Part shown: positions 4,169 to 7,163 of the stretch, one piece after another
Numbering within the stretch: position 1 is the first letter of the stretch
How the letters are laid out: the number at the start of each line of letters is the position of its first letter
IMG/VR virus record: IMGVR_UViG_2706794493_000022
Source of the DNA: a virus
Lineage: Duplodnaviria > Heunggongvirae > Uroviricota > Caudoviricetes
Direction: 5' to 3' (one strand)
Length of the DNA stretch: 7,505 nt
Notes under the pieces: model-generated
What the model was told of the DNA's origin: nothing
The model's input: the letters and a program-made list of their open reading frames with translations, nothing else
Database searches by the model: none
Made by a program: the position numbers and the translations under genes

Positions 4169-4570
4169 ATGATGAGCGCCCTAGAAGTATCTATGTACAG
4201 AATCAGCAAGCTTCTTCAGGAAACTGGATGGAGCCAGGCTGAGCTTGCCCGTAGAATTGGTGTGACACAACAAACTGTTCAACAATGGGTCAGCGGTAAG
4301 GCTACACCTAAAGCCTCAAGTTTGGATAAACTGGTTGAGGTTTCAGGGCATCCATTGCATTGGTTTTTATTGCCTCCTGAAGAGTGTGAGCAAATTTTCA
4401 CCCCTGACACGATGAAAATTGGTCCTCGCCAACGCGAACTGCTCCAAGCTTTTAGTGCGTTTCCTGAGGAAGACCAAGAAAAAATGCTTCAAGAAATCAA
4501 AGACAAGAAAAAATCAATGGAAGAAACCATTGCTAGGTGGCTGGCGGCACAAAAAAGCCGCCGGGCGTGA
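4169..4570 (+). CDS. paaR: Prophage repressor / TA regulator, XRE-family HTH (DicA/PaaR-like)
   Basis: 133-aa ORF with N-terminal HTH (SQAELARRIGVTQQTVQQW) and C-terminal ELLQAFSAFPEEDQ segment resembling DicA; divergent from the Cro-like gene; directly upstream of the antitoxin/toxin pair. True start may be the internal ATG at 4193; no SD at either. Confidence 0.75.
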   Translation: MMSALEVSMYRISKLLQETGWSQAELARRIGVTQQTVQQWVSGKATPKASSLDKLVEVSGHPLHWFLLPPEECEQIFTPDTMKIGPRQRELLQAFSAFPEEDQEKMLQEIKDKKKSMEETIARWLAAQKSRRA

Positions 4571-4597: not shown

Positions 4598-4789
4598 ATG
4601 GGTACAGCCCTTTCTCCGATAGTTTCAGAATTCGAAACTACCGAACAAGAAAACAGTTACAACGAATGGTTGCGCACTAAAGTAACGTCAAGCCTTGCAG
4701 ACACTCGCCCCGCAATTCCACATGACGAGGTAATGGCTGAAATGGAAAATCTTATTGCTCAAATTGCTGTAACTAACAAGAGCGAGTAA
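4598..4789 (+). CDS. paaA: Small antitoxin of a three-gene ParE-type TA module (PaaA-like, 63 aa)
   Basis: 63-aa acidic ORF; SD GAGGAG 7 nt upstream of ATG 4598; stop overlaps the ParE start (TAATG). The 63-aa size matches PaaA2 of E. coli O157:H7 as recalled. Confidence 0.7.
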   Translation: MGTALSPIVSEFETTEQENSYNEWLRTKVTSSLADTRPAIPHDEVMAEMENLIAQIAVTNKSE

Positions 4790-5076
4790 TGTTACCCATT
4801 TTATGGCTACCGTCTGCTCGCGATGATTTGCGCCAGATCATAACTTACATCGCCAAGGAGAACCCACCGGCAGCACGTAGACTAAAAATACGCATTGAAA
4901 CATCGGTATTACCTCTATCTGAGCATCCGTACTTATATCCACCAAGCGAACGGGTTTCTGGATTGAGAGAGATCGTGACCCACCCTAACTACATAATCCT
5001 GTACAGAGTAGCTGCTTCAAGCATTGAGATTGTAAGCGTGACACATTCTCGGCGACAATTTCCCTTCTCTATCTGA
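4789..5076 (+). CDS. parE: ParE/RelE-superfamily toxin (ParE-like, 95 aa)
   Basis: Typical ParE pattern (W...A..DL..I..YIA..NP.AA ... GLREI ... YIILYRV ... IEIVSVTHSRR); translationally coupled to the antitoxin by a 1-nt overlap. Confidence 0.85.
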   Translation: MLPILWLPSARDDLRQIITYIAKENPPAARRLKIRIETSVLPLSEHPYLYPPSERVSGLREIVTHPNYIILYRVAASSIEIVSVTHSRRQFPFSI

Positions 5077-5094
5077 GTTGAACAATTTTCATAC

Positions 5095-5117
5095 TCCCTC
5101 TTTCGAGGGATTTTTTT
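5095..5117 (+). terminator. Intrinsic terminator after the ParE gene
   Basis: Hairpin tccctc-tttc-gaggga (6-bp stem, 4-nt loop) followed by T7 (5111-5117), 19 nt after the ParE stop. Confidence 0.6.
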
Positions 5118-5127
5118 GCCCAAAACA

Positions 5128-5167
5128 ACAATTAAAAACTGTTGACACAAAAACAGTTTTTAATTGT
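5128..5167. promoter_or_regulatory. Second operator-like inverted repeat (16-bp arms, 8-bp spacer), near-identical half-site to 4094-4132
   Basis: ACAATTAAAAACTGTT gacacaaa AACAGTTTTTAATTGT; half-site matches the first operator at 14 of 15 positions; overlaps the candidate promoter. Confidence 0.65.
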
Positions 5168-5172
5168 AGATT
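5142..5172 (+). promoter_or_regulatory. Candidate sigma70 promoter of the dicB-type operon (-35 TTGACA, -10 TAGATT, 19-bp spacer)
   Basis: Perfect TTGACA at 5142-5147 inside the operator; TAGATT at 5167-5172. The spacer is longer than optimal, so the -10 choice is uncertain. Confidence 0.4.
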
Positions 5173-5353
5173 ACATACACCAACCACCCACCCCGCCCCA
5201 CAGAACGCCGGGCAATACTTCGAGTTACCAAGCAGTGGTCAGGGGGTAAGTAGCCAGCCCGAGGCGTATGAACATGACGGCAGGGTTCAACTTTAATAAC
5301 TATGCAGCAGGTTTTTGTTCCGCTACCCGGCGTTAAGGGGAAATGAGGTCAAC

Positions 5354-5509
5354 ATGGATACTATCGATCTTGGCAACAACGAATCTCTGGTGTACGGCGT
5401 GTTTCCCAACCAGGACGGTACATTCACCGCGATGACGTATACCAAAAGCAAAACGTTTAAAACCGAAAATGGTGCCCGTCGCTGGCTGGAAAGAAACTCA
5501 GGTGAGTGA
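5354..5509 (+). CDS. ydfA: Small YdfA/YdaF-like protein (DUF1391-type, 51 aa)
   Basis: ATG at 5354 with SD GAGGT 4 nt upstream (the ORF track's 5315 start is TTG with no SD); 51-aa product MDTIDLGNNESLVYG...; first gene after the promoter, as in the Qin dicB operon. Confidence 0.7.
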   Translation: MDTIDLGNNESLVYGVFPNQDGTFTAMTYTKSKTFKTENGARRWLERNSGE

Positions 5510-5510
5510 T

Positions 5511-5639
5511 ATGGATTTCGACACAATCATGGAAAAGGCTTACGAAGAATACTTCGAAGGCCTTGCCGAAGGCGAGGAAGCTCTCAGCTTCAGTGAGTTT
5601 AAACAGGCGCTTTCCAGTTCGGCAAAATCTAACGACTAA
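5511..5639 (+). CDS. ydfB: Small acidic YdfB/YdaG-like protein (42 aa)
   Basis: Not in the ORF track (under 60 aa); found by reading: ATG 5511 one nt after the upstream stop, SD AGGTGA 5 nt upstream; MDFDTIMEKAYEEYFEGLAEGEEALSFSEFKQALSSSAKSND. Confidence 0.65.
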   Translation: MDFDTIMEKAYEEYFEGLAEGEEALSFSEFKQALSSSAKSND

Positions 5640-5650
5640 CGGAGTTAAAG

Positions 5651-6040
5651 ATGGAATTTAAAGATTTACTAAAAGAAATCCAGGAAATTGCAGCACATGC
5701 ACTTCACCAACGTCTGAACGAAGTTGAATTAGAATCTGCAACGAAGAAATACATTGATAATATGGCTCGTAATGTGCGCGATGCGTTTACCGGATTGTAC
5801 TCTGTTTCGGTAACAAACAACCAGAATACTGAAGAAACTGCAAAGCGGATTGCCTCGGTGATGGGTTTTCATGTCGAGGAAAAGTATTCAAAAAAAGAAT
5901 TCTGGAAAACTACAAAAAAATTGCAGAGCGAGAACTGTCATCTCCTGCGGCAATCGCTTCTTTCTATGAGGAAAGTTATTCAGATGACACAGGATTACCG
6001 GAACTGCTCTCATTACTTGAAAAATTCGGAATTATCATGA
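5651..6040 (+). CDS. Hypothetical protein, 0-frame ORF whose C-terminal third looks out of frame (frameshifted gene)
   Basis: ATG 5651 with SD GGAG 6 nt upstream; the N-terminal ~82 aa look protein-like, but after the A7 tract (5890-5896) the 0-frame gives low-plausibility sequence while the -1 frame stays open and protein-like to 6189. Confidence 0.55.
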   Translation: MEFKDLLKEIQEIAAHALHQRLNEVELESATKKYIDNMARNVRDAFTGLYSVSVTNNQNTEETAKRIASVMGFHVEEKYSKKEFWKTTKKLQSENCHLLRQSLLSMRKVIQMTQDYRNCSHYLKNSELS

Positions 6041-6189
6041 AAGGGACTGCGTCGGCGGATTTCACATACTCAATGATGGCTGCTGATGGAGAGCCTTTTC
6101 CTCCCGAACTTAAAATAACCCCCGGCAATCATCCGATGGTAACAATAAGAGCAATAGAGAATTACTGGTTTAATCCAGTTCAACAATAG
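6037..6189 (+). CDS. -1-frame continuation / 50-aa ORF overlapping the preceding stop (ATGA)
   Basis: ATG 6037 overlaps TGA 6038-6040; the same frame is open and protein-like upstream back to 5833, suggesting it is the C-terminus of the 5651 gene rather than an independent gene. Confidence 0.35.
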   Translation: MKGTASADFTYSMMAADGEPFPPELKITPGNHPMVTIRAIENYWFNPVQQ

Positions 6190-6226
6190 TTGGTCTTTGC
6201 AATATTTTTAATGGGCCACTACGCCC

Positions 6227-6412
6227 TTAATCTCGGGCGGCGTTTAACTCTTTATTCAGTAAATCAGACTGATACTGATTTGGCTTTGTAATGATACTGT
6301 CAAGTTTTGATATATGAAATTCAACATGTTCTGGACAGTTAAAAATGTAATAACCGCCCTTCTCTAAAAAGCCAGAAAGAGCGTTACAGGCAGGGCATGG
6401 TTTGTTTGGCAT
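6227..6412 (-). CDS. Small zinc-ribbon-like protein (61 aa; CPAC...CPEH), antisense to the dicB-type operon
   Basis: ATG at 6412 preceded by SD GGAGGA 4-5 nt upstream (a second in-frame ATG at 6424 lacks one; the ORF track's 6484 start is GTG). Product MPNKPCPACNALSGFLEKGGYYIFNCPEHVEF... has a C-x2-C ... C-x2-H arrangement. Confidence 0.5.
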   Translation of the reverse strand: MPNKPCPACNALSGFLEKGGYYIFNCPEHVEFHISKLDSIITKPNQYQSDLLNKELNAARD

Positions 6413-6747
6413 TTTATCCTCCATTAAGGGCTGAATTAAAAATGGAGACCAACACGCTGCTACGTGTGGTCGTGCGCCGGACACAGATAAGAATCCGGCA
6501 CTGACAGTTTACTGAAAGGATATATCCCTGAAAAGTCAGGGCATAACACGAAAGTGCACGGCGAAGTCCTTCTCCCTTAGAGCCGTCGTTAAATTTAATT
6601 CGACCGTGCGCTTCCGGTTGTGGCAATCCGCGAAATGGCGCGGCGGTAAGTATGGCGGGGTTATTCTTTCCCCGTTGAGGACACCGGGTTGTCAGGTTGA
6701 CCATACGCTTAAGTGACAACCCCGCTGCAACGCCCTCTGTTATCAAT

Positions 6748-6805
6748 TTTCTGGTGACGTTTGGCGGTATCAGTTTTACTCCGTGACTGCTCTGCCGCCC
6801 TTTTT
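6748..6805 (+). ncRNA. dicF: DicF small RNA (ftsZ-targeting, Hfq-dependent) with intrinsic terminator
   Basis: tttctggtgacgtttggcggtatcagttttactccgtgactgctctgccgccc followed by TTTTT matches DicF of the Qin prophage as recalled; GGCGG...CCGCC stem plus U-tail; sits between the ydfB-like and dicB genes as in Qin. Confidence 0.85.
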
Positions 6806-6974
6806 AAAGTGAATTTTGTGATGCGGTGAATGCGGCTGAGCGCACGCGGAACAGTTAAAACCAAAAACAGTGTTATGGGGGGATTCTCTGTATCCGGCGT
6901 TAATTGTTAACTGGTTAACGTCACCTGGAGGCACCAGGCACCGCATCACAAAATTCATTGTTGAGGACGCGATA

Positions 6975-7163
6975 ATGGAAACGTTATTACCAAACGTTAA
7001 TACGTCTGAAGGTTGTTTTGAAATTGGTGTCACTATCAGTAACCCTGTATTTACTGAAGATGCCATTAACAAGAGAAAACACGAACGGGAGCTATTAAAT
7101 AAAATATGCATTCTTTCAATGCTGGCCCGTTTACGTCCGATACAAAAAGGATGCTGGCAATGA
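6975..7163 (+). CDS. dicB: DicB cell-division inhibitor (62 aa)
   Basis: METLLPNVNTSEGCFEIGVTISNPVFTEDAINKRK...LNKICI.SMLARLR matches recalled DicB; SD GAGGA 7 nt upstream of ATG 6975 (the ORF track's 6870 start is upstream junk). Confidence 0.9.
   Translation: METLLPNVNTSEGCFEIGVTISNPVFTEDAINKRKHERELLNKICILSMLARLRPIQKGCWQ

Follow-up and report, generated by a model that had tools for sequence, protein, structure and literature searches.

The gene that begins at position 5651 of the viral DNA analysed here, a stretch of 7,505 nucleotides that we call the window, raises a simple question: is it read through a programmed −1 frameshift, or has it been broken by an indel in a homopolymer? The features that prompted the question are present. 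The 0 frame is open from 5651 to 6040 (129 amino acids), and this is the only ORF that PGAP annotates in RefSeq, as the hypothetical protein WP_000394511.1. Within it lie two A7 tracts, at 5890–5896 and 5914–5920, both starting at codon position 3 and therefore both in the X_XXY_YYZ phase of a slippery heptamer. The −1 frame opens at 5833, directly after a TGA (5830–5832), and stays open to 6189; a GAGGA motif at 5876–5880 precedes the first tract by 9 nt; and a −1 shift at either tract would give a fusion of 179 amino acids. The tracts are not in themselves exceptional: A7 runs are no more numerous here than chance predicts (six on the two strands of the window, against 5.2 ± 2.8 in shuffled sequences), and both tracts arise from a Lys-Lys pair (AAA AAA) whose neighbouring codons have an A at the adjoining end.

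The window comes from a lambdoid prophage of the DicB/Qin type in E. coli O157:H7, of which it is the early region, and positions 5500–6300 match O157:H7 chromosomes at 100%. The neighbours annotated in RefSeq are a replication organiser, a DnaC-like ATPase, YdaT, the Cro-like YdaS, a cI-like HTH repressor (4169–4570), a RelB/RelE-type toxin-antitoxin pair (4598–4789 and 4789–5076, plus strand), ydfA and ydfB; 3′ of the broken gene follow a small minus-strand ORF, dicB (6975–7163), a DUF1482 gene and a RecE-type exonuclease. The antisense sRNA DicF (6749–6800, plus strand; Rfam RF00039, 76.7 bits) lies 3′ of the broken gene and 5′ of dicB. The order of repressor, ydfA, ydfB, 5651 gene, DicF and dicB is that of other DicB/Qin-type prophages, and the position between ydfB and DicF/dicB is the slot of ydfC in related prophages. 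The difference lies in the slot itself: the protein encoded here is not YdfC. In the Qin-like locus L002 a 212-aa relative adjoins ydfC. By analogy with the dicB operon of K-12, the gene presumably belongs to the repressor-controlled early-left operon.

Several other features of this region deserve mention in their own right. The RelB/RelE pair belongs to the immunity region of the prophage, where it is flanked by the cI-like repressor and ydfA, a place where it is absent from the Qin-like relatives L002–L004. Directly 3′ of relE is a terminator-like hairpin with a T7 tail (5095–5110), followed by an AT-rich inverted repeat (5128–5167) with a 16-bp stem (ACAATTAAAAACTGTT...AACAGTTTTTAATTGT); a promoter and terminator scan of 5000–7000 returned nothing that bears on the frameshift. 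On the other side, a small Cys-rich, zinc-ribbon-like ORF (WP_001133046.1, CPAC...NCPEH; 6227–6412, minus strand, extendable to 6484) converges on the broken gene, and most homologous loci have instead an 80-aa minus-strand ORF that overlaps the last 20–44 nt of the gene. In strain PE164, a pig isolate, the same A7 allele has an IS3-family element (L005, 151–1364) a short distance upstream, as an insertion between ydfA and ydfB; this element carries an annotated programmed frameshift of its own.

The comparison that decides the matter is with relatives of the gene in other prophages. A protein search with the repaired query recovered nine clusters of contiguous homologues from E. coli and Salmonella, 177–186 amino acids long and 63–94% identical, and homologue DNA was fetched for most of the nine. 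Two complete genomes carry the contiguous gene, strain A19 (L003, 179 aa, 85% nucleotide identity) and ETEC6333 (L004, 186 aa, 79%). In the DNA alignment, the sole gap of the window relative to the 179–180 aa relatives falls at the second tract. Here the window reads ACTAC-AAAAAAATTGC, with seven As, and the closest intact relatives (L006–L008, 95.7% nucleotide identity) read ACTACAAAAAAAATTGC, that is, ACTAC-A8-TTGC; L003, L009 and L010 read ACTGCAAAAAAAATTGC. Eight As are thus found throughout L006–L010, the closest of which are 95.7% and 90.7% identical to the window, and in more distant homologues the site is interrupted and contains no run at all (GCCAAAAGAATC, GCCAAACGCATC or GCCAGGGCAATC). 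Restoring one A yields ...EFWKTTKKIAERELSSP..., which is 94% identical to the homologue P0001 over its whole length. The alignment across related prophages, the check that the preliminary description had proposed, therefore identifies a simple homopolymer indel: the close relatives are single-frame, and the break lies in a mononucleotide run that differs from theirs by one base. Of the two explanations offered in the preliminary description, it is the indel that these comparisons support, and not the programmed −1 frameshift.

The same alignment defines the parts of the gene. The first 90 codons (MEFKDL...EFWKTTKK; 5651–5920, plus strand) align codon for codon with the contiguous homologues P0001–P0009 and L003–L016. 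The second tract, in A_AAA_AAA phase, is the site of a one-base deletion from an ancestral A8. Beyond it the 0 frame continues for 39 codons (LQSENCHLL...NSELS) and a TGA stop, at 5921–6040, which form the end of WP_000394511.1; no contiguous homologue has this tail. The original C-terminal coding region (IAERELSSP...NPVQQ), 89 codons and a stop, is left stranded in the −1 frame at 5920–6189 of the plus strand, and after repair it differs from P0001 at only two of its 89 residues.

The preliminary description had favoured a programmed shift at the first tract (5890–5896), stimulated by the GAGGA motif, on the ground that the 0 frame looks like junk beyond this point. The heptamer is indeed in phase and the motif 9 nt upstream of it. 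However, the residues that follow in the 0 frame, SKKEFWK, are kept in all contiguous homologues, as is the KKEFWKT that overlaps them, with S80, K81, K82, E83 and F84 invariant, and the −1 reading between the two tracts, RILENYKK, has no counterpart in any homologue. The first tract (TCA AAA AAA GAA, encoding S-K-K-E) is thus not the break point; the run and its frame are kept in intact homologues, which have either A7 or TCG followed by A6 at this position. The GAGGA lies 33 nt upstream of the second tract, where the frame is in fact lost. The motif lies within the codons GTC GAG GAA AAG, encodes part of the sequence VEEK, and varies among homologues (it is replaced by AAAGAGAAA in L003 and CAAGGGAAA in L011), so that a role as a dnaX-like stimulator does not hold up. 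The homologue alignment refutes a programmed shift at the first tract, which we regard as exceedingly improbable.

Homopolymers are classic sites of sequencing error, and a second possibility is that the true genome has A8 and that the missing base reflects a sequencing or assembly error. We searched complete E. coli genomes with A8 and A6 versions of the site. A 122-nt query repaired to A8 matched 386 genomes, with best matches of 99.2% spanning 121 bases and none at 100%. With a 42-nt A8 query all 387 records fell in the 95–99% band and none reached 99% or more; strain A19, with A8 but also one mismatch in the flank, should be among the 387. The A6 query found no exact match in the same genomes. 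Approximately 386 complete E. coli genomes thus carry A7, and neither A8 nor A6 occurs among those with this allele. The carriers include O157:H7, O121:H19 and O103 strains as well as pig and pork isolates, all with the same prophage module. The A7 tract is therefore reproducible in independent assemblies, and its agreement across ~386 complete genomes, sequenced independently in many laboratories, excludes an error of this kind to all intents and purposes. The deletion is fixed among the carriers sampled and is therefore genuine and inherited.

Other tract lengths do occur in the wider family. One assembly outside RefSeq (L017) has A6 at the second tract and would give a 105-aa product, L018 has A6 at the first tract, and in L019 both tracts are shortened, the first of them to A6; the resulting frames differ among the three. 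The A6 of L017 and the multiple indels of L019 and P0016, each seen in a single assembly, probably include errors. The two tracts thus change length in more than one manner, through mutation or sequencing error, with no single conserved direction. A short metagenome contig (P0014/L022) was considered as a more divergent example of the A7 allele, but it matches the window at 99%, its differences being scattered point changes, and is therefore uninformative on the age of the allele.

The existence of A6, A7 and A8 variants across the family might also suggest a phase-variable, or contingency, switch, in which the run toggles between A7 and A8 and the gene between off and on. Such a locus should show run-length polymorphism among close isolates, whereas the ~386 complete genomes with this allele are uniform and include no A8 revertant and no A6 variant. 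A run of seven or eight is also short for a bacterial contingency locus. We consider a switch of this type highly unlikely.

There remains the second tract itself as a site of programmed recoding, by −1 ribosomal frameshifting or transcriptional slippage, selected to provide both a 129-aa and a 179-aa product. The A_AAA_AAA heptamer is in the X_XXY_YYZ phase, the −1 frame is open as far as 6189, the allele is invariant in ~386 genomes, and A_AA.A_AA.A is among the heptamers that shift at more than 0.10% in the absence of any stimulator (PMC4066793). A_AAA_AAA is also the second most common heptamer at the frameshift sites of IS1- and IS3-family elements (PMC4066793, Sharma et al.). The comparative evidence points the other way. 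In E. coli genes AAAAAAA is depleted whatever the frame, for which indel mutation or transcriptional slippage is a plausible reason (PMC4066793). The two-frame layout is confined to one clade of near-identical sequences (at least 99% identity), and all homologues outside it have a single frame with A8 or an interrupted run, the nearest relatives having the former and the distant ones lacking a slippery run. The 39-aa tail has no homologue outside the clade. No downstream RNA structure was detected in the 70 nt after the second tract or the 64 nt after the first (z = −0.40 and −0.41, respectively, against shuffled sequences), and no conserved upstream SD-like stimulator was found, the sole SD-like element near the second tract being a GGA within Trp-Lys codons. 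As for slippage during transcription, the reviewed bacterial cases involve runs of 9 A or T (PMC5009743, Atkins et al. review), longer than the seven bases present here. Together, these observations make a selected recoding site at the second tract very unlikely.

It is useful to set the locus beside dnaX- and IS-type frameshift sites, in which an A_AAA_AAG or A_AAA_AAA heptamer is combined with an upstream SD element and a downstream hairpin or pseudoknot. The in-phase A heptamer and the open −1 frame are shared. Unlike those sites, neither the heptamer nor the two-frame architecture is conserved here, there is no downstream structure, and there is no conserved SD-like element at the right spacing. 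At dnaX, furthermore, the long frame itself is intact and shifting yields a shorter product, whereas in this gene the long frame is broken in the DNA. Sharma et al. had a background of ~0.055%, and in their data motifs lacking a stimulator stayed within about ten times the no-motif level (PMC4066793). From these published rates, leaky restoration of the frame would be expected below one percent, so that the in-phase A_AAA_AAA may support sub-percent −1 shifting at most.

What the intact gene was can be judged from selection on its two halves. Among pairs of intact homologues with dS of at least 0.4, dN/dS is 0.13–0.46 for the N-terminal half and 0.13–0.24 for the C-terminal half (at dS 0.5–2.4). 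With low values in both halves, both are coding, and in one single frame; purifying selection acts on the whole of what is one real gene. In the C-terminal half the window and its nearest intact relative are separated by two synonymous and two non-synonymous changes, which are too few for a test of relaxed selection. One of these changes, a window-specific Arg-to-Met substitution (NHPRV to NHPMV) at R163, codon 6136–6138 of the −1 frame, affects a residue that is invariant in P0001–P0009 and Lys in strain A19. This change in the stranded part fits relaxed constraint, though it is a single event. Elsewhere in the same region the 0-frame TGA (6038–6040) overlaps an ATG of the original frame (6037–6039) as ATGA, and a 50-aa remnant (MKGTASADF...PVQQ, 6037–6189) could in principle arise by termination-reinitiation. 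The overlap is accidental, since its Met is M130, which is invariant in the family.

The searches for a function gave little. Residues 1–92 match PHROG 1363 and 2151, both of unknown function; for this protein Pfam had no significant match, PADLOC nothing credible and a profile search of the PDB nothing below E = 0.06, and the AlphaFold2 model, built on a nine-sequence alignment, is unusable (pLDDT 49.9, pTM 0.34). Among sequenced phages there is no full-length match, only a 26% N-terminal match in phage Evi. The N-terminal ~50–90 residues (MEFKDLP...NMARNVRDAFTGLY; 5651–5800, and L002 2411–3049) are a module also present in proteins whose C-termini are unrelated, such as the 212-aa Ybl81/phrog_2151 proteins and the 129-aa P0053, and found in ~900 of 5,426 complete E. 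coli genomes. This distribution suggests mosaic recombination within the gene slot.

The type and location of the indel are established, as are its fixation and the single-frame state of the homologues, and we conclude that the 5651 gene has in all probability been truncated by an ordinary inherited A8-to-A7 deletion, and that the tract is no programmed recoding signal. One A was lost from the A8 run (ACA AAA AAA ATT, T-K-K-I) in an ancestor of the STEC prophage, most likely by replication slippage. Ribosomes would then read the 90 native codons, continue through the 39 out-of-frame codons and stop at 6038–6040, so that the product is likely to be a truncated protein of 129 amino acids, and we infer loss or reduction of function. 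The last 89 original codons would be left as a stranded −1 frame that is presumably still open because the mutation is too recent for stops to have accumulated. Three observations could be held against a plain indel, namely the A_AAA_AAA in phase, the −1 frame open for 89 codons, and the complete stability of A7 across several serotypes (~386 genomes). All three would also be expected of a selected recoding site; recent shared ancestry explains them equally well. The allele resembles other homopolymer-indel alleles of cryptic and lambdoid prophages in its one-base change in a run, its intact orthologues elsewhere and its still-open stranded frame. Nothing about it is notably different, and it appears widespread only because O157:H7 and other STEC have been heavily sequenced.

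A variant of the deletion model is that the A7 allele is a leaky ‘savior’ indel, with truncation favoured in the lysogen and a trace of the 179-aa protein used after prophage induction. The full-length protein might for instance be harmful, like the products of neighbouring kil-type or DicB-type genes, and the trace would come from rare −1 slippage on A_AAA_AAA, whether ribosomal or transcriptional. The idea of ‘savior’ indels with low-level compensatory frameshifting has been put forward, with the G-run indels in herpesvirus thymidine kinase as an example (PMC5009743). The two cases share a homopolymer indel for which rare slippage on that run could make up in part. In the present gene it is the phase of the run that suggests such compensation, and we consider the ‘savior’ reading very unlikely.

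The significance of the result is small: it corrects the reading of one prophage gene of O157:H7. The RefSeq ‘hypothetical protein’ WP_000394511.1 (129 aa) represents an allele, cut short by a frameshift, of a 179-aa family, and its record should preferably say so. More generally, homologues need to be checked before a slippery heptamer in phase with an open −1 frame is taken to indicate programmed recoding. Should the reading as a leaky indel prove true, compensatory frameshifting, of which examples are already known, would gain one minor case in the A7 allele of this prophage.
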